From: Nitrosopumilaceae archaeon
Lineage (GTDB): Archaea; Thermoproteota; Nitrososphaeria; Nitrososphaerales; Nitrosopumilaceae
Direction: 5' to 3'
NCBI GenBank assembly: GCA_965208905.1
Contig: OZ242365.1
Coordinates: 64,001 to 128,000 of the forward strand
DNA length: 64,000 bases
Part shown: piece after piece, positions 15,930 through 54,013 of the stretch
How the letters are laid out: the number at the start of each line of letters is the position of its first letter
How positions within the stretch are numbered: position 1 is the stretch's first letter
Notes under the pieces: generated by a model
The model's database searches: none
The model's input: only the letters and a program-made list of their open reading frames with translations
Told to the model about the DNA's origin: nothing
Made by a program: the position numbers and the translations under genes

Positions 15930-18900
15930 GTGATTGCCTATACGGTTATCGTGGCGATCGCGGTGCTTGCTCTACTGTTGGCAGGTAGTAATGATGCGCT
16001 TGGGCTGGAGACGAGTGATTCAGGCACAAGATACCAGATATACGGGAATGTGTCTGTCATACCGGTACTAACTGACTTGGAAGCGCCCTGGGATGTGGCG
16101 TTTGGTGATAACGGTTGGATGTACGTATCCACTAGGCCTGGAGTGTTGTATGGTATGTATGAGGGAAATGTGACAAATTTATTGAACCTTCGAGTCTCTG
16201 GTGGAGAGGGCGGTATGTTGGGAATTGCCACACTTGGAGATATGTTGTATATATACCACACTGATCCGGAGAACGGTAACAAGATCAGCCGATATATCCA
16301 TGGGGAGTCGGGCCTCTCGTACAACACCACAATAATAGAGAATATTCCTGCGGGAGCATATCACGATGGTGGACGGATACGGTTCGGACCAGACTCAATG
16401 TTATATGTGACTACCGGTGATGCAGGTCGTAACGTGAACTCTTGGCTCACATCATCGCTGGCAGGCAAGATACTGCGACTCAATCCAGACGGTTCCATTC
16501 CATCTGACAATCCGTTTCCGGACAGTCCCGTATATGCATACGGACTACGCAATCCGCAAGGACTGGCATGGGATTGGCATGGCAATCTTTACGCAACGGA
16601 TCATGGTACAAGTGGACAAGACGAGATAAACCTCATTATAGCTGGTGGTAATTATGGATGGCCGTTTTCACGCGGAGACCGTATAGTTCCCAACACCCTC
16701 CCACCGTTGATACACTCCGGCAACGACACTTGGGCGCCCTCAGGTTTAGTCTTTGCCGGGACGGAAATTCCGCAGTGGGAGGAGACGCTTCTGTATGGGG
16801 CTCTGCGTGGAGAACATTTGGGAATAGTGCGGACAGATGGATCCGGACATAACATGGCGTATGCTGGTGAATTCGGCCGCATACGCACGCCCATAAAACA
16901 TCCCAATGGAACTTTGTATCTGCTGACTAGCAACAATGATGGGAGAGGTACTCCAAATGCAGGAGATGATAAGCTCCTGCGTCTTGAATATGATGTCTAT
17001 GCCAAGGCACAAGTTACAGCCAGTACGCCAGTTGCAGGAGAGGATATCGTAGTCACCATCACTTTGGACGCCGCTGCGCCCATAGACAATCATTTTATTG
17101 TACAATTGTATCGATGTGATCAAAATGGCTACATAAAGGATATGAACCTATGTTCTGGCGATAAAACGGTTACATATGATGATATTGTCTCGACATATAC
17201 ACCAGAACCGGGTCATCCTAGCAGCACTTCGCTAAATCTCCCCGCAGGTATCTTGGACATAAAAAATGGCACAACAACAGGCACATTATCTTTTGGCACA
17301 ACACATGATGGTGATGAGGACCAAGAATCCCTAATTATCTCTGTGGCACCGCGTGTTGACAAGAGAGGATGGCACCCATTTTATTCATTTAATGACCGAC
17401 TAAAGTTGGCATGGGTTGACCTATCTACCCCGTTTGTGGGAGGAAGTCATGGTTTTGCCTACTGGAAGACTTCAATTCTCCCCTCGCCGGATCAACCTCA
17501 AGTCGTAGAAATTTCCGGCCTCCACAGTGTGAATGAGGGTGACTCTATACCTATCTTTATAGATGCCAAGCCGGCTCCGTCGTCACCATTGGACATAAAC
17601 GTCACAATCGCCCAGGTGGGAAACTTTGTGAATTCTAAATATATAGGATCACAGACAATAACACTCCATACAAACGGATCTGCATCAATGACGATACCGA
17701 TTGATAACGACATCGTAGATATTCTGCGCCGCATTGGATATTCTAGTGGCCATATTGTGACTATACCAACTATTGATAACAACATTGTGGGTGAGCCAGA
17801 CGGTAGAGTCACAGTAACACTGAATCAAGGTTTGGGGTACAAGCCTGCCTCCTCAAAGACATGGTCAGTCGGTGTATATGATGACGATGACGGCAAACCC
17901 GTGGCAGTATCACTTACAGCAGCAAAGACATCCATCTTCGAGGGTGGTAAGGGCAATTTTACAATCAAACTGAACCGTCAGTTAGAGCCGGGCGAAACCG
18001 TCACCGTGCCATTTGATGTGGAAGGCGGTACGACACCCGAGCACTGGTCTGTCAGTCTCAGTGAATACAGTACAGGGGCAGAGCTAACTGCGTCTGGCGC
18101 CAAACCCGTTGTAGTATTTACCAGAGGGGGGCAAACCGCGATGCTTGTGCTTACTGTCAACCAAGACAGTGACGCTGTAGACCATGCACTCACCGTATCA
18201 CTTGGAACCGGTGACAGGCGCCCAACATCAATCGGGGTTGCAGGCGGGACAATACTGGGCGATGTTACATCACTTACAATTGACATTATAGATGATGACA
18301 AGCCGGCTCCCACCATAAACATACAGGGGGATAATCCCGTACGGCTGTCTGTAGGGGGACAGTACGTTGATGCTGGCGCCACCTGTACAGATCACACCAA
18401 AAGTCCCATCACGCCCACAGTCAACGGCTCTGTCAACACGCTCGTTCCAAGTACATACACCATACACTACTCTTGCGCAGATGACACAGGCAAAAAGTCA
18501 TCTGCAGCCAGGATAGTAGTTATACAGGACACCGCACCGCCGACGCTGACCATACCAAATGTGTCGGCCGAGGCCACCGGACCATCAACGCCTGTAGACA
18601 TTGGATTCCCCACCATACAGGATGCCTCCGGTGGGCCCTATATTATAACACACAACGCCACCGGAACGCCCCAGACTGCGACCTCTGATGTCACCGTATC
18701 TCTTGCCGTCGGCACCCATACAATACAGTGGAATGCTACAGATGCATCACACAACACCGGTACGACACACCAGACTGTATCTGTTTCAGACACCACGCCG
18801 CCCACACTAACACTGAACGGCAAGGCCTTAGTCTACATACTTGTGGAAGATACGTATACCGATGCGGGGGCCACATGTACAGACAGTGTGGACGGCACCC

Positions 18901-20120
18901 TGAAACCTGTAGTCCAGAGTAATGTCGATATATCGGGTGCAGGGCAATACACCATACAATACACCTGTCTTGATACTAGAGGCAATGCAGCGCCACCGGT
19001 CAGCCGGATTGTGTCCGTGGATGATGCCACACCACCAGTGCTTTCAATATCTGACGTGTCGGCCGAGGCCACCGGACCGGCGACACCGGTCAACCTCGGC
19101 TTCCCCCTTGTACAGGATGCCTCCGGTGGGCCCTATATTATAACACACAACGCCACCGGTATACCTCAGACAGCCACATCTAGTGTCACCACGCCTCTTG
19201 CCATCGGCACTTATACAATACAATGGAATGCTACAGACATATCTAGCAATACTGGTACGACACACCAGACTGTGTCCGTGGATGATGCCACACCACCAGT
19301 GCTTTCAATATCTAACGTGTCGACCGAGGCCACCGGACCATCAACGCCTGTAGACATTGGATTCCCCACCATACAGGATAATTCTGGCGGTCCTTATACC
19401 ATAACACACAACGCCACCGGAACGCCCCAGACTGCGACCTCTGATGTCACCGTATCTCTTGCCGTCGGCACCCATACAATACAGTGGAATGCTACAGATG
19501 CATCACACAACACCGGTACGACACACCAGACTGTATCTGTTTCAGACACCACGCCGCCCACACTAACACTGAACGGCAAGGCCTCAATCTCCATACCTAT
19601 GGGTAGTACATATACGGATGCGGGAGCCGCATGTACAGACAGTGTGGACGGCACAATAAAGCCCACTCTAAGTGGCAATGTCAACTCATCCATCCGTGAC
19701 ACATATACAGTTACATACACATGTACGGACACGGCAAGAAACAGTGCCTCTCCCGTAACCCGAACAGTTCAAATCGCTCTCCCAACCATTATGCCAACAG
19801 TTTCTATTACTGGAGATACAACAGCAGTGGAGGGAAGCAGTCTGGACTTTGTCATAAGCCTGAATCACCCGTACGCACAGGCTATTGACGTCTATTACAT
19901 TACATTAGATGGAGGGGCGATAGCCGGAAGTGACTATACGTTTGCTCACGATTTTGTAAGATTTAATCCAGGATCGATAGAGCACACGGTCAGTATTGAA
20001 ACCACGGCAGACGACATTTTGGAAGATGAGGAGGAGATGTACTTTGAGATTACCTATGCTGTTGGTGCCAAGATCAGCGAAAAACAATGGGTTGCCACCG
20101 GTACCATATCAGATCCCTAA
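15930..20120 (+). CDS. Large secreted/surface protein: PQQ-dependent sugar dehydrogenase-like propeller plus Calx-beta, DUF5011 and HYR-like Ig domains
   Basis: Signal peptide; GEGGMLG, HDGGRIRFGPD, GKILR, YGLRNPQG, NYGWP; repeated DTTPPTLTLNG/YTDAGATCTD and AEATGP modules; C-terminal DG.A.AGSDY. Confidence 0.85.
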   Translation: MIAYTVIVAIAVLALLLAGSNDALGLETSDSGTRYQIYGNVSVIPVLTDLEAPWDVAFGDNGWMYVSTRPGVLYGMYEGNVTNLLNLRVSGGEGGMLGIATLGDMLYIYHTDPENGNKISRYIHGESGLSYNTTIIENIPAGAYHDGGRIRFGPDSMLYVTTGDAGRNVNSWLTSSLAGKILRLNPDGSIPSDNPFPDSPVYAYGLRNPQGLAWDWHGNLYATDHGTSGQDEINLIIAGGNYGWPFSRGDRIVPNTLPPLIHSGNDTWAPSGLVFAGTEIPQWEETLLYGALRGEHLGIVRTDGSGHNMAYAGEFGRIRTPIKHPNGTLYLLTSNNDGRGTPNAGDDKLLRLEYDVYAKAQVTASTPVAGEDIVVTITLDAAAPIDNHFIVQLYRCDQNGYIKDMNLCSGDKTVTYDDIVSTYTPEPGHPSSTSLNLPAGILDIKNGTTTGTLSFGTTHDGDEDQESLIISVAPRVDKRGWHPFYSFNDRLKLAWVDLSTPFVGGSHGFAYWKTSILPSPDQPQVVEISGLHSVNEGDSIPIFIDAKPAPSSPLDINVTIAQVGNFVNSKYIGSQTITLHTNGSASMTIPIDNDIVDILRRIGYSSGHIVTIPTIDNNIVGEPDGRVTVTLNQGLGYKPASSKTWSVGVYDDDDGKPVAVSLTAAKTSIFEGGKGNFTIKLNRQLEPGETVTVPFDVEGGTTPEHWSVSLSEYSTGAELTASGAKPVVVFTRGGQTAMLVLTVNQDSDAVDHALTVSLGTGDRRPTSIGVAGGTILGDVTSLTIDIIDDDKPAPTINIQGDNPVRLSVGGQYVDAGATCTDHTKSPITPTVNGSVNTLVPSTYTIHYSCADDTGKKSSAARIVVIQDTAPPTLTIPNVSAEATGPSTPVDIGFPTIQDASGGPYIITHNATGTPQTATSDVTVSLAVGTHTIQWNATDASHNTGTTHQTVSVSDTTPPTLTLNGKALVYILVEDTYTDAGATCTDSVDGTLKPVVQSNVDISGAGQYTIQYTCLDTRGNAAPPVSRIVSVDDATPPVLSISDVSAEATGPATPVNLGFPLVQDASGGPYIITHNATGIPQTATSSVTTPLAIGTYTIQWNATDISSNTGTTHQTVSVDDATPPVLSISNVSTEATGPSTPVDIGFPTIQDNSGGPYTITHNATGTPQTATSDVTVSLAVGTHTIQWNATDASHNTGTTHQTVSVSDTTPPTLTLNGKASISIPMGSTYTDAGAACTDSVDGTIKPTLSGNVNSSIRDTYTVTYTCTDTARNSASPVTRTVQIALPTIMPTVSITGDTTAVEGSSLDFVISLNHPYAQAIDVYYITLDGGAIAGSDYTFAHDFVRFNPGSIEHTVSIETTADDILEDEEEMYFEITYAVGAKISEKQWVATGTISDP
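18561..19584 (+). repeat. Intragenic ~260-bp repeats (18561-18828, 19056-19316, 19317-19584)
   Basis: 18645-18828 is identical to 19401-19584; patchwork identity among the copies. Confidence 0.9.
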
Positions 20121-26798: not shown

Positions 26799-28844
26799 TT
26801 AGTCGCTTTTGTATTGGTTTACGTGCTCTGCTATGGTCCTGTATAGTGACCTAAAGTTGTCCCGTGTCTGACTACTGAGAAAGTCTGTCTGACGGGTGGA
26901 AATCTTGTCGCATATGTAACGAGTTATGTCCAGATGATCAAACTCTCCCCAGTCATCATCGTAATGTTCGCTCCATATCTCTGATAGTGACTTGACTATG
27001 CCGCCATCCCCGTCCACCAAATCAGAGGGTATGTCGGTGTACCTCTTACCTCGAAGCTTGACCTCATATGTCTGGTTTACCGCGTACAGATAGTCATTAC
27101 GGGCAATATAATCCTCTATTGACTCTAGTTTTTTACCATCTCTCTCATAGAATACTGTCTGTATGCTTGAGAATCCATTTTGAGCCAAGGCTGCCGCTAT
27201 GTGACGTGACTCTATTGTGTCGTCTAGCAATATTATTGTCTTGTAGCCATGATCCCTATAGAATATGGATAGAGGTAGGACTGCATCCTTTGAGTGACTG
27301 GCCACTACGTTTAGCGGGTTCATGGATATGCTGGGATCTTGAACAAACTTATCAAATGCATTCAGATACATCGCATCAGACATGGTTTCCACTATGACTA
27401 CGGGTCGGGAGTTGGTACCAATACTTGTGTCTGTTATGGACTGAACCAAACCCCGTGACAAACCATACAGTATTGGTGTCAATGTCTTACTGTCTGCATT
27501 CCAATAGTCATAGAAGATTCTACTAAGGTGTCGCCGTCTGTCCAACTCCACCACTAACAGATTACCTGGATTATAATCAAATATCATAAAGGGTGAGTGT
27601 GTTGCGTATAATACCTGATTTGAACCTGCCAGATCCCTGAGCAAGTCTGCTATGCCCAACTGTTGTGTCGGGTGCAGATTACGCGCCGGCTCATCAAGTA
27701 GCAGTATGGCCTCTTTTAGCTCTGCACGTTGTGTCTCAGCAGCAAAGTTGACTATAAATGAGAATGTCCACTTGAATCCTTCGGCCCGACGATTCAACAG
27801 TCCTGTATTGGTAATGGTCCCATCATGGTGTACGTCTGATATGACAAGACTCATTATATTTCCCGGATTATATCTCAAATCCACACGTATGGGGTCCCCC
27901 TTCCAGGTGGGATTCAGTCTCTTTGTCAGTCGGTTGCTGGAAGTGTTCAGTATCTTTATGAGTGTGGAGGGACTGTCCTTGAAAGACTCCAAAGCGTCCA
28001 AATCCAGCTCTGCTAAATAGAACAAATTCCTCACAGTCTCTGCCTTGTCGAACTCTTCCACATACTCTATGGCATCCCTTCTCTTTTCTCTTTGATCATC
28101 ACTAAACTCATTGAGATTGATATTTCCATGTATCTTTTTGTAGTCGGAGAAGTAGACAAATCTAGGATGTAACTCTGCACTGATAAAGTTCTCCAATGTC
28201 TTTCTCTGGCTCATGCCTTCCATTATACTCTCAAAACTGTTCTGAGGGCTCTCGTATATTGCAGCCCACTCTTTCAAGACCTGATCCTCCCGCATGGCTA
28301 TTGTTCTTATCTGCGTATTCAAATGATTAAATCCTGCATCAAACTCCTGTGATGTCTGTGGTTGAGGCGACTCAAGAAAGGTTGAATCTATCTTTTCTCG
28401 TATGTGATTGGGTATGGTACTCAAAAAAGTCTGAACATCATTTACAAAGTTACTCCAAGATCTGGAGTCAGGCTGTATGGTCTCATCAATCTGTACATCT
28501 CCAAAACTATACTGCACTTCTGAAGATTTGTTGGTACGAAAGAGCTTTATCTCTCTTATCTCTGGCATGTCTGGAAAATTTTCTTGTATTATGGTAGTCT
28601 CTGTCTGTGTCAGCTCAAAATTGCCTTCTGCCAGTACTATCTCAGACTTTAACTCCTCGGACATCTCATCACACAAGTCCAGCTCTGAGGCGTGTCCATC
28701 CTTGTTTAGAAGTGTGAGGGCTTCTAGTATTGTGGTCTTGCCACTCTCATTGCGCCCCACAAATGTGGCCAAATCTCCCACTGATATCTCGCCAGAGTCA
28801 TGTATACATCTAAAAGCCCTGATACGGAATTTGCGCAATCGCAT
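26799..28844 (-). CDS. OLD-family-like ATPase (ABC ATPase plus TOPRIM-like C-terminus)
   Basis: GRNESGKT, LLLDEPA..LHP, ATHSPF, VIVE..SD, ILLDD, IED. Confidence 0.8.
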   Translation of the reverse strand: MRLRKFRIRAFRCIHDSGEISVGDLATFVGRNESGKTTILEALTLLNKDGHASELDLCDEMSEELKSEIVLAEGNFELTQTETTIIQENFPDMPEIREIKLFRTNKSSEVQYSFGDVQIDETIQPDSRSWSNFVNDVQTFLSTIPNHIREKIDSTFLESPQPQTSQEFDAGFNHLNTQIRTIAMREDQVLKEWAAIYESPQNSFESIMEGMSQRKTLENFISAELHPRFVYFSDYKKIHGNINLNEFSDDQREKRRDAIEYVEEFDKAETVRNLFYLAELDLDALESFKDSPSTLIKILNTSSNRLTKRLNPTWKGDPIRVDLRYNPGNIMSLVISDVHHDGTITNTGLLNRRAEGFKWTFSFIVNFAAETQRAELKEAILLLDEPARNLHPTQQLGIADLLRDLAGSNQVLYATHSPFMIFDYNPGNLLVVELDRRRHLSRIFYDYWNADSKTLTPILYGLSRGLVQSITDTSIGTNSRPVVIVETMSDAMYLNAFDKFVQDPSISMNPLNVVASHSKDAVLPLSIFYRDHGYKTIILLDDTIESRHIAAALAQNGFSSIQTVFYERDGKKLESIEDYIARNDYLYAVNQTYEVKLRGKRYTDIPSDLVDGDGGIVKSLSEIWSEHYDDDWGEFDHLDITRYICDKISTRQTDFLSSQTRDNFRSLYRTIAEHVNQYKSD

Positions 28845-28953
28845 TAATGTTTTGTATATATACAGAGCGATTTAATTCCTTCGGGAGTGTGCGCAATCAG
28901 GAGGTCTGTATCCGATAACTAGAACAATAATAACTTACATATTTTATCAATAA

Positions 28954-30570
28954 AGGTTTCTCCCGCAAAGTCGGGTGGTGGTTGATGTGTGTTGGATAGC
29001 GTTAAATACGCCATTAAACCGTACTATATGATGACTCTTGTAAAAAATAGCAGGGCGATAACACGTCCATACACAAAAAATTTGGGCATGCGGCATGTGT
29101 TTGAACATGTCAGGAAGGTGGCAGAAGTGGCGTACATTATAGCGAATAATACAGGGAGGAATACCTATGATGTTAACGCATTGATGTATCGTATAATGCG
29201 CGGTCCTGACCCCAAAGTATATTCGTCCATAACGCAGACCGCCATACGGGACGGGGTTGCCACCCATAAAACGTACAATACAAAGACTGCGCAGGGCATG
29301 AAGGTATCTGAGCCCGTGTTTCGCAATCCGGTTGTAAAGTTAACAAATCAAAGTTGGAGGCTGAATCCGATAGCGGGCGGATATATGGCTATTGCAAATG
29401 TTGGCTCATCAAAATACCCACATATGATAGCAATTCCCGTCTCTTCAGATGTGGTACGTAAAATAGGACAAAATGAGTTGGGCGAGTTGTGGATTACGCC
29501 AACTACATACACCATAACATATTACAACAAAGTGCCCGAGGTTGAAAAGCCCCACCCACACGGCAAGTCAGAGATTATAGAGTTGCTTACGGATGTGGGT
29601 TGTGTGGGCGGCACACCAAAGGATGTAATTGGCGTGGATATTAATGAAAAGAACATCACCGTAGGCGACAAGAATACAATGGTACGGTTTGATCTATCAG
29701 ATACGATACAAGCCATTGAGGAGGCAAAGACTGAGGATATAAACAATACGTATACCCGTACACATGATGATGCTGTATATGCGGCACGTACCGGAAGGCG
29801 CATTACACACAAGAAAGAAGAGGAGCGCAGAGAAAAGCAACAAGTCACATATGGCGGCCCCAAACTACACAACAAACTCAAACGCAGATACAGGAAACTC
29901 AAGAGGGCCGGTAAGCTCAAGAGGGCCGCGGAGATAAAGAAGCAGATGAACAGATGCATACTGAGCATACAGCATAACCACACAAAGTCAAGGAAGAATG
30001 CTAAAAAGCGCAGGGTGACCAAAGCCGTGCGCCACCACGAACATGTGCTGAGTGTGATAGCGTTATGTATAGCACAGTGGGCTGCACAATCCGGGTGTTT
30101 GGTGATGTTGGAGGATTTAACTCACATATCGTATAATTGGCAGAAGGGGGGAAAGTTTGGACGCAGTATGCGTCGCAGGCTATACTCTGCCATGATGCGA
30201 AAGGCATCGGATTTAATTTATGAAAAGTCCCGGTTTTTGGGAGTGGAGGCATTACATATGCGTCCACACAACACATCCAAGCTATGTGCTGCATGTAGAA
30301 CCATACTAACTGGAACTTATCATAAAAAAGACTGCACCCACTGCCATATAATTGGCGTAGATCGCGACGTCAATGCAGTGGAGAATATACGGCGAACAAG
30401 TGCCGTATCCCGATACGGTCGTCAGGTTTCGGCCAGTCTGAGCGAAGTCCGTCGTGGTGTGGATGTAATACTCGATCCCACACCACTCATACAGGGTTGC
30501 TGGAGCAACTGGGCTGACAGACTATCCCGCGTGGCGGGGGTGTAATCACCCGACTTTGTGGGAGGAACCT
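28954..30570 (+). mobile_element. TIR-bounded non-autonomous cassette carrying only tnpB
   Basis: 26-bp IR AGGTTTCTCCCGCAAAGTCGGGTGGT (28954-28979) vs reverse complement of 30545-30570 (23/26); no transposase; no TSD seen. Confidence 0.75.
29028..30545 (+). CDS. tnpB: TnpB-family RNA-guided endonuclease
   Basis: RuvC-I GVDINEKN, RuvC-II LEDL, TSKLCAAC..CTHC Zn finger, RuvC-III DRDVNAVENI; TATA-like GTTAAATA at 29001. Confidence 0.85.
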   Translation: MMTLVKNSRAITRPYTKNLGMRHVFEHVRKVAEVAYIIANNTGRNTYDVNALMYRIMRGPDPKVYSSITQTAIRDGVATHKTYNTKTAQGMKVSEPVFRNPVVKLTNQSWRLNPIAGGYMAIANVGSSKYPHMIAIPVSSDVVRKIGQNELGELWITPTTYTITYYNKVPEVEKPHPHGKSEIIELLTDVGCVGGTPKDVIGVDINEKNITVGDKNTMVRFDLSDTIQAIEEAKTEDINNTYTRTHDDAVYAARTGRRITHKKEEERREKQQVTYGGPKLHNKLKRRYRKLKRAGKLKRAAEIKKQMNRCILSIQHNHTKSRKNAKKRRVTKAVRHHEHVLSVIALCIAQWAAQSGCLVMLEDLTHISYNWQKGGKFGRSMRRRLYSAMMRKASDLIYEKSRFLGVEALHMRPHNTSKLCAACRTILTGTYHKKDCTHCHIIGVDRDVNAVENIRRTSAVSRYGRQVSASLSEVRRGVDVILDPTPLIQGCWSNWADRLSRVAGV

Positions 30571-30574
30571 GTTG

Positions 30575-30757
30575 TTACTTTCGTCGTCGTCTCTGCCCAG
30601 GCTTATTCTGCCCAGGATATCTACTTAATAGTATTCTTTTACGATAGTTATTCTTGTTCTGTAGACTGGAGTTTGTGCCGATTCTTTTACGACCATCTAT
30701 CTTTGGTGTCTGACCTCGAACTTTACCTGCCTTTGTAAGCGAACCGTGAGTTGCCAT
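30575..30757 (-). CDS. rps30e: 30S ribosomal protein S30e
   Basis: HGSLTKAGKVRGQTPK. Confidence 0.95.
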   Translation of the reverse strand: MATHGSLTKAGKVRGQTPKIDGRKRIGTNSSLQNKNNYRKRILLSRYPGQNKPGQRRRRK

Positions 30758-30789
30758 TATACATTATAGTTATTTTAGTTGAAATTTAA

Positions 30790-30986
30790 TTGTTGTGCAA
30801 AGAACAACGTTTCACAATTCACATGCCTCCCGGCTGCAGGTCTGTATCGTGGACACCTACGGACCGGCAGATTGATAGGCATATGGCGCGCCATCTGAAT
30901 ATCAAAATCATAGCCAGACAAAAGGATCCAACGACCAACCTCGCCCCGTACGGCATTAGTAATGTGTATCATTGTATATAATTCCC
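30790..30986 (+). mobile_element. Orphan downstream end of the GGGAATTAT-TIR tnpB cassette family
   Basis: TGTGTATCATTGTATATAATTCCC (30963-30986) matches the TIR at 21/24; reading frame ends VYHCI* like the cassette TnpB VYFCI*. Confidence 0.6.
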
Positions 30987-31186
30987 TAAACTGCTGAACC
31001 ATACAACAGGTGTCGTCAAAAACTCGCCGATATTCGCTCCGGGCCAAAATGCATACGCTACCCCCCGCCCCGCGTGGCCCGGGATCCGCATCGCGGCCGG
31101 ACTGTCCAGGTCACGTTAGGCCACGAATTATGAGGCGCTGTCCTCGATACACTATTTTTAAATTGGGACATTACACAGAATACAAC

Positions 31187-38956: not shown

Positions 38957-40422
38957 GGGAATTATATACAAAAGTACACAGCCTCGGCTGTACACTCATG
39001 CCTTTTCTGACGGCCTCGTTGTATGGAGCGGAGCATGGCGGGTGTTGGCTTGTAGTCCTCCTTGTGCCCCGGCCGTCTTAGGACGACGTTCCCCGCCGCC
39101 CTATACAGAATATTCCAGGCGGCATTGACATCCGCGTGGAATACCCCGGTACAATTAGTGCAAATGAACTTATCGCGTGATATACGCGACTCTGAATCTA
39201 CGTGACCACACACATGGCACATCTGGCTCGTATATTTGGCCGATGCCCCCAACAGCGGTATGTTGTGCATCTCACACCACTGCGCAAGCTTGCGCAGGAA
39301 CTCCCCAACATGGTTCTCCCGCATTGAACGGTTCATGGCGCGTTTGTAATTCCCGCCATGTGTGGTCATGTCTTTTACGGAGAGCGACTCGACCACGACT
39401 GCGTCCATACCATTAGTTATCTGCGCAATCGTCTGATTTATGGTGTTCGCAGCTATGTTGTTGGCCTTCCTGTATAGCCGCTTTATTTGATCATTCAATA
39501 TATGCCACTTCCGGCCATGCCGTGTCTTGCGGTCGCGCAAACTCTTGAGAGCGTCAATATCCCGCAGGATTGCTCTATGGCGGGTGTTGTGTATTGTAAC
39601 GTTGCCGTCCGTATCTACCGTGACGGCGAGATGCTTGCCGCCCACATCAACGCCACGCATTACACCCGTAGTATGGTGCGACTCTACCGGTTCATGTATG
39701 GCAATATGCAGCTCAAACATGTGGTCTGATGGTTTGGTATGCTTGTCTATACGTTTGGTGACATCAACTATCTTGAATGAGCGCATGTCCCATAATACAT
39801 TGATGGGCTTGGCGGTCTCTGCAATACCATATCCGGGGATATGTATGGTGCGCTCACCTTTTCGTACAGGCGGATTTACACTGTATAGTATGATGCGGCC
39901 GTCTTTGCGGCGGTATGGCGCATGGCCGGAGTTGTCATCCATGACTATCCTACATGCGACGGATGCATCTTGTATGGCGCCCCTGCCAAACACCATAGGC
40001 AAGTCAGATACCCATACATGTTCAGCGCGCCACTCCGTAAGCTGCTTGAACATGCCGTACTTTAATGCCATCTTTGACGGCCCAAAATCATATGTATGGT
40101 AGTCATCGTCCAGCATACCTGATGTAAAATCCAGCTTGCCCGGCAGTTTGAAGGGCTGCAGGATGTCCACTACCACCCTCTCCATATATTCGCCACCAAA
40201 CAAATACTCTGATACGGCGCGGTTGTACACATATCTTGACGCATGATTCGTGCGGTGCGCCCACTCTGCAAACAACACAGCCCTCCGTAGTGGTACCTTA
40301 ACTATCCGTACCATAATATATAATACGGTATGCTGGTATTTAAAGGGAGTTGTATGGACGCGATCCGTGGTTCAGGCATTAACTCTCAGAATCGGGGTTG
40401 TGTACTTTTGTATATAATTCCC
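38957..40422 (-). mobile_element. Non-autonomous TIR/TSD cassette (IS1595-like ends) carrying only tnpB
   Basis: Perfect 24-bp TIR GGGAATTATATACAAAAGTACACA (38957-38980, 40399-40422); 8-bp TSD GTTCTTAA (38949-38956, 40423-40430). Confidence 0.92.
38962..40314 (-). CDS. tnpB: TnpB-family RNA-guided endonuclease
   Basis: SRYVYN, GVDVGGKHLA, VVESL, TSQMCHVCG..CTNC, HADVNAAWNI; TATA TTTAAATA ~25 bp upstream. Confidence 0.92.
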   Translation of the reverse strand: MVRIVKVPLRRAVLFAEWAHRTNHASRYVYNRAVSEYLFGGEYMERVVVDILQPFKLPGKLDFTSGMLDDDYHTYDFGPSKMALKYGMFKQLTEWRAEHVWVSDLPMVFGRGAIQDASVACRIVMDDNSGHAPYRRKDGRIILYSVNPPVRKGERTIHIPGYGIAETAKPINVLWDMRSFKIVDVTKRIDKHTKPSDHMFELHIAIHEPVESHHTTGVMRGVDVGGKHLAVTVDTDGNVTIHNTRHRAILRDIDALKSLRDRKTRHGRKWHILNDQIKRLYRKANNIAANTINQTIAQITNGMDAVVVESLSVKDMTTHGGNYKRAMNRSMRENHVGEFLRKLAQWCEMHNIPLLGASAKYTSQMCHVCGHVDSESRISRDKFICTNCTGVFHADVNAAWNILYRAAGNVVLRRPGHKEDYKPTPAMLRSIQRGRQKRHECTAEAVYFCI

Positions 40423-52543: not shown

Positions 52544-54013
52544 GGGAATTATATACAAAAGTACACAGCCTCGGCTGCACACTCAAGCCTTTTCTGACGA
52601 CCTTGTTGTATAGAACGGAGCATGGCGGGTGTTGGTTTGTAGCCCTCCTTATGCCCCGGCCGTCTTAGGACGACCTTCCCAGCCGCCCGATGCAAAATAT
52701 TCCAGGCGGCATTAATATCCGCGTGGAATACCCTGGTACAATTAGTGCAAATGAATTTGTCGCGCGTGATACGCGACTCTGAGTCTACGTGTCCGCACAT
52801 ATGGCACGTCTGGCTCGTATATTTGGCCATCACCCCGCATAGCGGAATTCCCTCCCTCTCACATCGCTGCGCCAACTTCCTTAGAAACTCACCAAGTCTG
52901 TTCTCCCGCATGGAGCGATTCATGGCGCGTTTGTAATTCCCGCCATGTGCAGTCATGTCCTGTATAGATAATATCTCGGCTATGATGGCATCCGCACCTT
53001 GTACGATATATGATACCGTCTGGTTTATGGTGTTTACGGCGATGCCATCAGCCTTCCTGTATAATTGCTTTATTTGGTCGTTTAAAACACACCACTTCCG
53101 GCCATGCCGTACCTTGTGGTCGCGTATACTCTTGAGAGCGTCTATCTCCCGCAGTATTTCTCTGTGGCGCGTGTTGTGTATTGTGACATTGCCGTTTGTG
53201 TCAACAGTGACTGCCAAGTGCTTACCTCCCACATCCACACCCCGTACTACACCCGTATTACGGTGCGGCTTTACCGGTTCATGCACTGCGATATGTAATT
53301 CAAACATGTGGTCGGACGGCTTTGTATGCTTGTCCACCCGTTTGGTGACATCAACTATCTTGAATGACCGCATATCCAATGATGTATTGATTGGCTTGGC
53401 GGTCTTTACTATACCATATCCGGGTATTCGTACAGTATGATCATCCTTCCGTACAGGTGGGTTTGCGCAACTAAGTATGATGCGGCTGTCTTTACGGCGG
53501 TATGGAGCGTGGTTGGAGTTATCATCCATAACTCTTCTACATGCGATGGAGGCATCCTGTATGGCGCCACGGCCAAACGATACAGGACATTCGCGCAGCC
53601 ATGTATGTTTGGCGCGCCACTTCGTAAGCTGTTTATACATGCCGTACTTTAGTCTCCTCTTTGATGGACCAAAGTCATATACCTGGTAGTAATCGTCCAG
53701 TGTACCGGATGTAAAACCATCTAGTGTGTTTGGTAGTTTGAATGGCTGCAGGATATCAACTACCACCCTCTCCATATATTCACCACCAAACAAATACTCT
53801 GAAACGGCGCGGTTGTACACATACCGTGTAACATGGCCCATGCGGTGCGCCCACTCTGCAAACAACTCATCCCTTCGCAATGGTACCTTGACTATCCGTA
53901 TCATGATGTGTCATACGGTATTATGGTATTTAAGGGGATTGTTGTATCACGAAATCTGTGTTGGGTCAACATTGACTCTCAAAACAGAGACTGTACTTTT
54001 GTATGTAATTCCC
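52544..54013 (-). mobile_element. Second GGGAATTAT-TIR tnpB cassette
   Basis: TIR 52544-52565 vs 53992-54013 (21/22); same layout and size as 38957-40422; no TSD. Confidence 0.88.
52549..53904 (-). CDS. tnpB: TnpB-family RNA-guided endonuclease
   Basis: GVDVGGKHLA, IIAEIL, CHMCG..CTNC, HADINAAWNI; paralog of 38962-40314. Confidence 0.92.
   Translation of the reverse strand: MIRIVKVPLRRDELFAEWAHRMGHVTRYVYNRAVSEYLFGGEYMERVVVDILQPFKLPNTLDGFTSGTLDDYYQVYDFGPSKRRLKYGMYKQLTKWRAKHTWLRECPVSFGRGAIQDASIACRRVMDDNSNHAPYRRKDSRIILSCANPPVRKDDHTVRIPGYGIVKTAKPINTSLDMRSFKIVDVTKRVDKHTKPSDHMFELHIAVHEPVKPHRNTGVVRGVDVGGKHLAVTVDTNGNVTIHNTRHREILREIDALKSIRDHKVRHGRKWCVLNDQIKQLYRKADGIAVNTINQTVSYIVQGADAIIAEILSIQDMTAHGGNYKRAMNRSMRENRLGEFLRKLAQRCEREGIPLCGVMAKYTSQTCHMCGHVDSESRITRDKFICTNCTRVFHADINAAWNILHRAAGKVVLRRPGHKEGYKPTPAMLRSIQQGRQKRLECAAEAVYFCI

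Follow-up and report, generated by a model that had tools for sequence, protein, structure and literature searches.

A tnpB gene between IS6/IS240-like transposon ends, with a one-sided motif before the target duplications, in a Nitrosopumilaceae archaeon

A gene for a TnpB-type nuclease that lies alone between inverted repeats raises the question of which kind of transposon carries it, and of what such a nuclease might contribute to the place where copies are found. This arrangement occurs in the window, that is, the whole 64,000-nucleotide stretch analysed here (G000:C1:64001-128000), which belongs to a Nitrosopumilaceae archaeon whose genome (G000; 2.21 Mb, one contig, 45.6% G+C, 99.6% complete) was searched together with those of congeners. 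The element stands between a gene for an AAA_15 ATPase on its left (26799-28844, minus strand) and rpS30e on its right (30575-30757, minus strand). It derives from an IS6/IS240-like insertion sequence, measures 1.6 kb and is non-autonomous, a TnpB/Cas12f-like gene having taken the place of the transposase gene; its relatives within this genome are here called family A.

The initial annotation, made from the letters of the window, had bracketed the gene with a 26-bp inverted repeat (23 of 26 positions complementary by eye), and this repeat is borne out. The computed arms (28954-28977 and 30547-30570) are complementary at 22 of 24 positions, their outermost A/T pair falling outside the element, since the tips are fixed at 28955 and 30569 by multi-copy alignment, by 8-bp target duplications, and by a 263-nt contig from a sponge metatranscriptome in which 22 other letters separate 28954 from 30570, the 1,615 element bases with their GG..CC ends being absent. 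BLASTN with the element and 200-bp flanks returned 12 alignments of at least 1,600 nt in G000, that of the window copy included, at 86-92% identity, together with one copy truncated at its 5' end and four fragments or deletion derivatives. All full alignments end at window positions 28953-28957 and at 30569, so that a chance origin of the inverted repeat is excluded by 12 full-length copies bounded by the same ends, and the multi-copy alignment agrees with the annotation in setting the boundaries at the inverted repeats and not at IS605-type ends. The 8-bp target duplication is perfect in 10 of the 14 two-ended family A elements; among the other four, one matches at 8/9 bases with a 9-bp offset and three have no duplication. 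The window copy is one of those lacking it (2/8 flank bases match), and the annotated absence of a duplication is thus right for this copy and wrong for the family, being a peculiarity of the former. No transposase gene is found inside the element (28955-30569), as had been annotated.

The family of the ends, previously left unresolved, can now be given as IS6/IS240-like. The terminus GGTTCCTCCCGCAA... was found 75 times in G000 (at most two mismatches) and bounds three element families. Besides family A, these are family B, with nine copies of 1.5 kb encoding a canonical TnpB (NCBIfam guided_TnpB 2.5e-42; Pfam OrfB_IS605 and TNB), and family C, a single 1,536-bp element in this genome with the same end type. 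The three frames of family C align piecewise to IS240-type open reading frames (ORFs) of G000 (~aa 60-430, 22-51% identity) and it is therefore a frameshifted IS6-type transposase gene; family C-like DNA is present in 8 of 10 genomes of the genus, G000 included. The search for an autonomous partner by its ends, as proposed in the annotation, led from this frameshifted copy to intact partners in congeners, where elements of 1,442 bp and 1,482 bp carry the same ends, 8-bp duplications and intact ORFs of 396 and 393 aa, the first scoring 31.8 bits on PF13610 (DDE_Tnp_IS240; cut-off 27) and the second only 20.1. By eye, the ends of the congener copies are identical to the family A consensus at 22 of 23 positions. 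Family A is thus moved in trans by an IS240-type DDE transposase that generates the 8-bp duplications, and the cognate enzyme is intact in sister species and frameshifted in G000. Joint use of the different ends is seen at G000:C1 924780-927837 (locus L085), where a B copy and the C pseudogene stand head to head, 8 nt apart (AGCGTTGA), and are bounded by one 8-bp direct repeat, TTAAACTC; from this single repeat it follows that one enzyme used the B end and the C end together, the pair being a composite that moved as a unit. In addition, A-type and B-type ends both occur on a single IS6 pseudogene of G000.

Family A has short inverted ends with GG tips and a caaa motif, which, with 8-bp direct repeats, characterise the IS6 family according to Varani et al. 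(2021, PMC7986276), and it shares with IS6/IS26 these three traits, the IS240-type DDE transposase and indirect signs of replicative intramolecular events. It departs from the family as described there in several respects: IS6 members are given as 0.7-0.9 kb with transposases of 213-254 aa, whereas the autonomous relatives found here measure 1.44 kb and encode ~395 aa; the cTGTt motif has been lost from the G000 copies and replaced, the congeners carrying GGTTCTATTGCAAA...; and the transposase gene has been replaced outright by tnpB, the single passenger-carrying member described in that account being ISDsp3. IS6 elements are also expected to lack a marked target preference. No match to Y1_Tnp (PF01797) or Resolvase (PF00239) was found anywhere in G000, control genomes having given matches, while TNB-domain matches number 77 in 2.2 Mb.

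Thirteen intact IS240-type (PF13610) ORFs occur elsewhere in G000 (e.g., 18770-20035, 1337783-1339051 and 2095856-2097160), with open frames of 356-501 aa and 64-82% nucleotide identity among themselves. No convincing inverted repeats surround them, apart from one unrelated 39-41-nt pair at 1100833/1102465, and no A-, B- or F1-type ends (for F1, see below) lie within 3 kb. With no matching ends nearby, none of them can be named as the mobilising enzyme; they may be domesticated, or their ends may have diverged too far to be recognised.

Capture of tnpB by such elements, annotated as recurrent, is indeed so: at least four TnpB lineages of this genome (families A, B, F1/F5 and F7) are enclosed by inverted repeats and have 8-bp duplications. 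The other two tnpB cassettes of the window (38957-40422 and 52544-54013, minus strand; G000 102957-104422 and 116544-118013) belong to F1, a family of 23 members with 8-bp duplications and an A-T-N-G motif before them, the ends of which read GGGAATTATATACAAAAGTACACA (GG tip, CAAAAGT motif; the end pattern used for flank counts was GGGAATTATATACAAAAGTAC). The annotation had considered these ends unlike those of the element studied here, and the sequences do differ, but GG tips, CAAA(A)GT and 8-bp duplications are common to both, and on this resemblance the two types probably belong to the same superfamily. Family F2 of G000 (14 members) shows no obvious inverted ends.

Only indirect signs of replicative transposition were found, in the form of inverted 8-mers in the congener G009, flank exchange between two F5 copies, and adjacent deletions flush with element ends. 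At locus L110 (G009:C1:2338900-2342900), outward-facing IS6-like ends (locus positions 1330 and 2674) surround a 1.3-kb segment and the flanking 8-mers, ATTGACCA and TGGTCAAT, are mutually reverse complementary, as is classically left when intramolecular replicative transposition inverts a segment. The two F5 elements, of 1.64 kb and with F1-type ends (G000:C1 1455264-1456902 and 2049469-2051107), have the 8-mer GGAAATTA to the right of one and to the left of the other, and this exchange of flanks indicates recombination or inversion between them. IS6-like copies at two other G009 loci (L106 and L108) reach 3.1 kb because of an insertion within the transposase gene; the protein that it encodes (372-403 aa) looks, by eye, like an IS110-type transposase.

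Regarding the cargo, the encoded protein appears, from its sequence and its modelled fold, to be a divergent but complete TnpB/Cas12f-type nuclease with intact catalytic residues. The ~505-aa protein with its RuvC D/E/D triad, as read in the annotation, corresponds to a start at ATG 29028; homologue alignments begin at about residue 19 of the longer 518-aa frame, residues 1-15 of which are modelled by AlphaFold with a predicted local distance difference test score (pLDDT) below 50. In Pfam, the only match is Cas12f1-like_TNB (PF07282; aa 409-467, 29.6 bits, cut-off 26.3); the NCBIfam Cas12f2 match is below threshold, neither NCBIfam guided_TnpB nor Pfam PF01385 matches, and a sequence search of the PDB gave chance-level matches only (integrin I-domains at E ~0.007, one Cas12m at 0.025). 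Among 1.84 billion representative proteins there were 127 matches at E ≤ 1e-3, of which only P0001-P0004, P0006 and P0007 are near full-length and reach the N-terminal part, the remainder being fragments or ordinary TnpBs aligned to ~aa 310-480 only. Nonetheless, D217, E375 and D460 of the split RuvC site (D...E...D), intact in the window copy, are conserved at 90% or more in an alignment of 35 sequences, as are C436 and C449 of the Zn-finger TNB domain present between RuvC-II and RuvC-III. The AlphaFold model (pLDDT 84.2, predicted template modelling score 0.75) has 88 Foldseek matches at E ≤ 0.001, AsCas12f (1.4e-14), Fanzor2 (2.3e-11) and ISDra2 TnpB (8.9e-10) among them over ~500 aligned columns, and shows the overall predicted WED-REC-RuvC fold. 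The long Lys/Arg-rich insertion previously noticed is present as an enlarged stretch from RuvC-I to RuvC-II (~aa 255-335), modelled as helices. An open frame of at least 518 aa is kept in 9 of the 12 full-length copies, and diversity among copies is 0.064 at codon positions 1 and 2 vs. 0.148 at position 3, as would befit a protein under purifying selection.

The 3' end of the gene has features of its own. Its TAA stop (30543-30545) overlaps the 26-bp right arm by one base, in accordance with the annotation, and the hairpins that had been seen there appear in predicted folds of the last 240 nt, with a z-score of only -2.33. Third-codon diversity among the 12 copies is 0.094 in the last 330 nt of the ORF vs. 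0.163 elsewhere (Mann-Whitney p 3e-4), and that of codon positions 1 and 2 is 0.046 vs. 0.069 (p 0.008). By analogy with known TnpB systems, the last ~300 nt of the gene together with the right repeat would encode the scaffold of a guide RNA. The prediction that the guide itself comes from the flank on the rpS30e side can, by the same analogy, be kept, but its start would be 30570 (TGTTGTTAC...), one base earlier than had been noted.

For a comparison of flanks, all left ends were oriented gene-upstream, position -1 being the base just before the duplication. In family A, the dinucleotide TA occupies -2 and -1 in 14 of 15 left ends (background TA 0.070; binomial p 1e-15), T or A is found at -3 likewise in 14 of 15, and the first duplicated base is a pyrimidine in 15/15; the remaining left end shows TTA at a 9-bp offset, and no conserved bases were found 3' of the right duplication. 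Family B displays another motif, A-T-A-T-T-G, with G at -1 in 6/9 (TG p 1e-5), so that A and B differ at -1 (Fisher p 1e-4), and in F1, whose motif is A-T-N-G, the 12 left ends that match the search pattern carry A at -4 (10 of them), T at -3 (9) and G at -1 (11), members with other left ends being uncounted. Beyond G000, a homologue in G005 (35-43% identical) is present in five copies of 1,704 bp, whose IS6-like end is a different one, with 8-bp duplications (8/8 in four, 7/8 in one) and TTA in 5/5, and homologues in G002 and G007 have ATA. B-like homologues in congeners, also with IS6-like ends, show triplets that vary by sub-lineage (TTA three times, TTG four times, TCA twice, TGT and TTC), to be taken only as leads, since automatic end-finding failed at 9 of 19 loci and several duplications were hand-corrected by 1 nt. 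As a control, 23 end pairs of autonomous IS6-like congener copies were collected, of which the 12 with a duplication of at least 7/8 were oriented by their transposase gene; these show no preference at -1 (T3, C4, G3, A2), nor any signal on the side not upstream of the transposase. A T-rich bias may therefore be the transposase's own, and it is the TnpB lineage that the longer motifs and the base at -1 follow. A one-sided, lineage-specific motif at the position of a target-adjacent motif (TAM) suggests an influence of the nuclease on the sites at which copies insert or persist.

The copies lacking a duplication are informative in this regard. All three of family A have adjacent deletions flush with the element; their left flank keeps TA plus 8 nt in 3/3, and in 3/3 the unoccupied allele has TA directly 5' of the 8-mer now found at the right flank. 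For the window site, the unoccupied allele, a comparison that the annotation had asked for, is supplied by the 263-nt contig described above, which comes from a related strain (3/55 and 5/71 flank letters differ) and reads ...CTTTA followed by TGTTGTTA, the 8-mer now abutting the right end. For copy c838k, the flanks lie 9 nt apart in G005, ending ...CTA and then TGCGACAT; for copy c945k, 378 nt separate them there, ending ...ATA and then CGTCCGCT. The simplest history for these copies is a normal insertion at TA|N8 and, later, loss of the DNA immediately beyond the right end, by which another TA-preceded sequence became its neighbour; in the window copy this loss amounts to 30 bp, made up of the 8-bp duplication and the 22 letters. 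Among sites elsewhere, an empty orthologous site with a single-copy target was found for c239k in G005 and for two of the five G005 insertions in G000, the other three (L066, L069 and L070) having no clean empty site there, and the orthologous site of c2201k in G005 holding 158 nt of unrelated sequence instead of a clean empty site. In G008, a degraded remnant of the right end is kept at the window site. The G005 orthologue of the c239k site (L117, G005:C1:1817930-1822430; G000 239553) reads ATG in its unoccupied state, vs. ATA in the occupied one, before CATTATCA; in this single case, G at -1 could be chance or a cleavage-resistant allele.

Considering (i) the one-sided motif, (ii) its variation with TnpB lineage, and (iii) its presence at the deletion sites, we regard as slightly on the probable side a scheme in which family A is a trans-mobilised cassette whose guide RNA, extending into right-flank sequence, directs the nuclease to empty alleles, by which the element homes. 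Transcription would leave through the right end, so that the guide of each copy would be its own right flank, made of the 8-bp duplication and downstream DNA, and the TAM of the nuclease would be the invariant W-T-A that immediately precedes the left duplication. The ribonucleoprotein would then recognise the unoccupied allele (TAM, 8-mer and downstream sequence) and not its own site, because a W-T-A-preceded match to the guide exists only in the former; the cut empty allele would be repaired from the occupied chromosome, and the element thereby copied in. Since IS6-type elements transpose replicatively, with no empty donor site left behind, what is proposed is homing into naive alleles and not restoration of an excision site. 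Insertions, and later flush deletions, would be retained only if competing alleles have a TAM before the sequence that forms the new right flank, and the scheme explains the deletions because the undeleted allele holds a TAM-preceded target for the guide of the deleted copy, and not the reverse. For the genus as a whole, we put forward only tentatively, as somewhat short of probable, that a non-excising IS6-type transposon repeatedly swapped its transposase for TnpB, the TAM of which decides where copies sit, by homing or by steered integration.

A number of observations weigh against homing. It needs host ploidy and DNA exchange, which are here assumed, and no RNA end, guide or cleavage is seen in the data: contigs 90-99% identical over parts of the element occur in four sponge metatranscriptome runs of two studies, those over 30168-30558 at higher word depth than gene-body contigs, but Logan contigs break at repeats and show neither transcription, RNA ends nor level. 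An Rfam scan of 28800-30800 (E up to 1) gave no match, and RNAalifold on 15 right ends found no covariation, the copies being too alike and their few stem changes mostly uncompensated. A master-copy history could yield fewer nonsynonymous than synonymous differences (dN < dS) without selection on each resident copy. The motif has only two to three fixed bases, short for a TAM, and the single G009 homologue has GCA or CAC instead of TA. Furthermore, the autonomous copies, free of TnpB, have T at -3 (9/12) and -2 (8/12) on the transposase-upstream side, and part of the motif may be transposase preference, this control coming from other species, mostly G009. A and B ends also differ slightly, so that transposase paralogues with different preferences could explain their motifs. 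These last two features would be expected if TnpB were only a passenger with no role in copy location, acting perhaps on something else or decaying as cargo, and if the motif were an oriented preference of the DDE transposase or its transpososome; the three TA-preceded flush deletions would equally be expected from intramolecular transposition into a preferred TA|N8 site. This we consider unlikely, in that the autonomous copies show no preference at -1, yet A is found there in 14/15 ends of family A and G in 6/9 of family B; the two end types coexist on one IS6 pseudogene, and the B and C composite moved as a unit; motifs of three to six bases, only gene-upstream and varying by TnpB lineage, fit TAMs; and the protein appears to be under purifying selection, with 9/12 frames intact.

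The same motif could alternatively be set at insertion, and not by later selection, if TAM-bound TnpB joined in target capture and the 8-bp stagger of the DDE enzyme began right after the TAM. In 14/15 the motif runs up to the first duplicated base without a gap, it tracks TnpB lineage, and it adjoins the secondary flush deletions as TA in 3/3; all this agrees with such steering, but the contact is here hypothetical, no interaction between TnpB and a DDE transposase is described in the main accounts of PMC10691335 and PMC13565253, and homing selection accounts for the same data, deletions included, which leaves targeting by TnpB improbable. Much less credit is given to a promoter requirement, by which only copies behind a TATA-like flank would express the gene and be kept: the motifs are A/T-rich (TTA, ATATTG, ATAG) and lie ~45 nt 5' of the start codon, but they are placed with single-base precision, which a promoter would not require; the G at -1 of B and F1 is unlike a TATA element; the left end itself already contains a TATA-like box, ~24 nt 5' of the ATG; and in duplication-less copies the TA of the empty allele precedes right-flank sequence, far from the gene start. 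Finally, TnpB-only elements are classically filed under IS200/IS605 (IS1341-like), where Y1 single-strand peel-and-paste would move the element and the inverted repeat would be incidental, and a small palindrome (CCCG...CGGG) does lie in each repeat. Its loop and the outer seven bases are inverted as well, however, making the repeats true inverted ones, and such an origin is refuted, with hardly any doubt left, by the 8-bp duplications, by the absence of Y1_Tnp from G000, and by autonomous partners in which the same ends flank an IS240-type DDE gene.

Comparison with described systems places the homing scheme for family A among DDE-linked TnpBs. Six DDE-associated TnpB branches with inverted ends, IS630 being named, are reported by Altae-Tran et al. 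(2023, PMC10691335), along with solo TnpBs whose ends match transposase-bearing elements and which are mobilised in trans; as there, the family A TnpB lies between the inverted terminal repeats of a DDE transposon, with the tnpB 3' end within 250 bp of the transposon end. A 2026 review (PMC13565253) names ISL2, IS630 and IS1031 as DDE partners and argues that TnpB should mainly benefit excising transposons, by which its rarity with DDE transposases is explained. Unlike what these two accounts describe in their main text, the vehicle here is IS6/IS240, which is unnamed there, and a TAM-like motif precedes a variable 8-bp duplication; IS6-type transposition being replicative, the rationale of 'restorative homing' does not apply. 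Literature searches found no report of TnpB with IS6/IS240 ends, such a branch possibly being among those in the supplementary lists of PMC10691335, and none of a TAM-like motif outside a variable duplication; whole-word matches to IS6 were resistance-plasmid papers with no TnpB link as judged by title and abstract. DDE-linked solo TnpBs being already published, it is the IS6-type vehicle, the number of captures and the deletion-surviving motif that are noteworthy here.

With TnpB-omegaRNA systems of IS605 elements (ISDra2, IS608), as reviewed in PMC13565253, family A shares the RuvC nuclease, a presumed guide from right-end DNA, a presumed TAM equal to the left-side insertion motif, and the empty site as presumed target. 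IS200/IS605 elements have neither inverted ends nor duplications, and their transposase itself inserts 3' of the TAM-like motif, whereas here the 8-bp duplication made by a DDE enzyme would form the first 8 guide nt and no excision is expected. Also comparable are Fanzor1 and Fanzor2* (Yoon et al. 2023, PMC10711439), in which a TnpB-type nuclease is likewise the sole gene of a non-autonomous transposon with terminal inverted repeats and target site duplications, and the right repeat contributes to the scaffold of the guide RNA, as is presumed for family A. The Fanzor duplication as described is of fixed sequence, part of the TAM and folded into the scaffold; that of family A is variable, the fixed motif being outside it.

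Several TnpB lineages thus ride on an IS6-like DDE element for which excision is not expected, and Y1 and serine transposases are absent from the genome. If the motif is a TAM, a replicative transposon would gain from TnpB by homing into naive alleles, as a natural gene drive, and this benefit would be independent of excision; TAMs of compact nucleases could be read from the genome, 5' of the 8-bp duplication, and transposase, ends, nuclease and empty alleles would make up a natural system in which any effect of an RNA-guided nuclease on DDE target choice could be looked for. Should it be transposase preference only, this is still a clear case of IS6-type ends with tnpB as sole cargo.

Table 1. 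Coordinates of the element and its parts, in window positions.
Feature	Position	Strand	Remark
Left flank	28944..28954	+	TTA (28944-28946), then 8-mer TCAATAAA (28947-28954); family motif at its usual distance
Whole non-autonomous element (family A)	28955..30569	+	1,615 bp, tips GG...CC; homology end in 12 full-length copies
Left terminal inverted repeat	28955..28977	+	IS6-like: GG tip, CAAAGT motif, internal CCCG/CGGG palindrome
tnpB-like gene	28989..30545	+	518 aa from GTG; 505 aa from ATG 29028
TATA-like box (TTAAATA)	29001..29008	+	~24 nt 5' of ATG 29028; read from sequence
RuvC codons	D217, 29637-29639; E375, 30111-30113; D460, 30366-30368	+	
Presumed guide-RNA (omega/reRNA) scaffold	30215..30569	+	overlaps gene 3' end; third-codon diversity, fold z-score
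Right terminal inverted repeat	30547..30569	+	presumed final portion of guide-RNA scaffold
Presumed guide-encoding flank	30570..30589	+	TGTTGTTACTTTCG...; overlaps rpS30e stop and last codons (minus strand); by analogy

The TATA-like box of Table 1 is a possible internal archaeal promoter for a near-leaderless mRNA. Among other mobile DNA of G000, a 1,247-bp IS3-type element occurs in 13 copies at ~99.7% identity (e.g., 1526238-1527484), with two overlapping frames, an rve-like integrase and ends TGGTGGGGACCCC..., and looks like the most recently active insertion sequence of this genome. To the right of the element in the window, ~78 nt (31065-31143) inside the annotated 5' part of an ORF of the DeoC family recur at 78-90% identity in many places in G009, G007, G005 and G000, and may be a small repeat or a miniature inverted-repeat transposable element, which would imply that the DeoC-family gene starts further downstream. 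The left neighbour encodes a 681-aa AAA_15/AAA_21 ATPase with OLD/AbiEii-like matches, which make it a candidate defence gene; its orthologue adjoins the same intergenic region in G008 and does not in G005.

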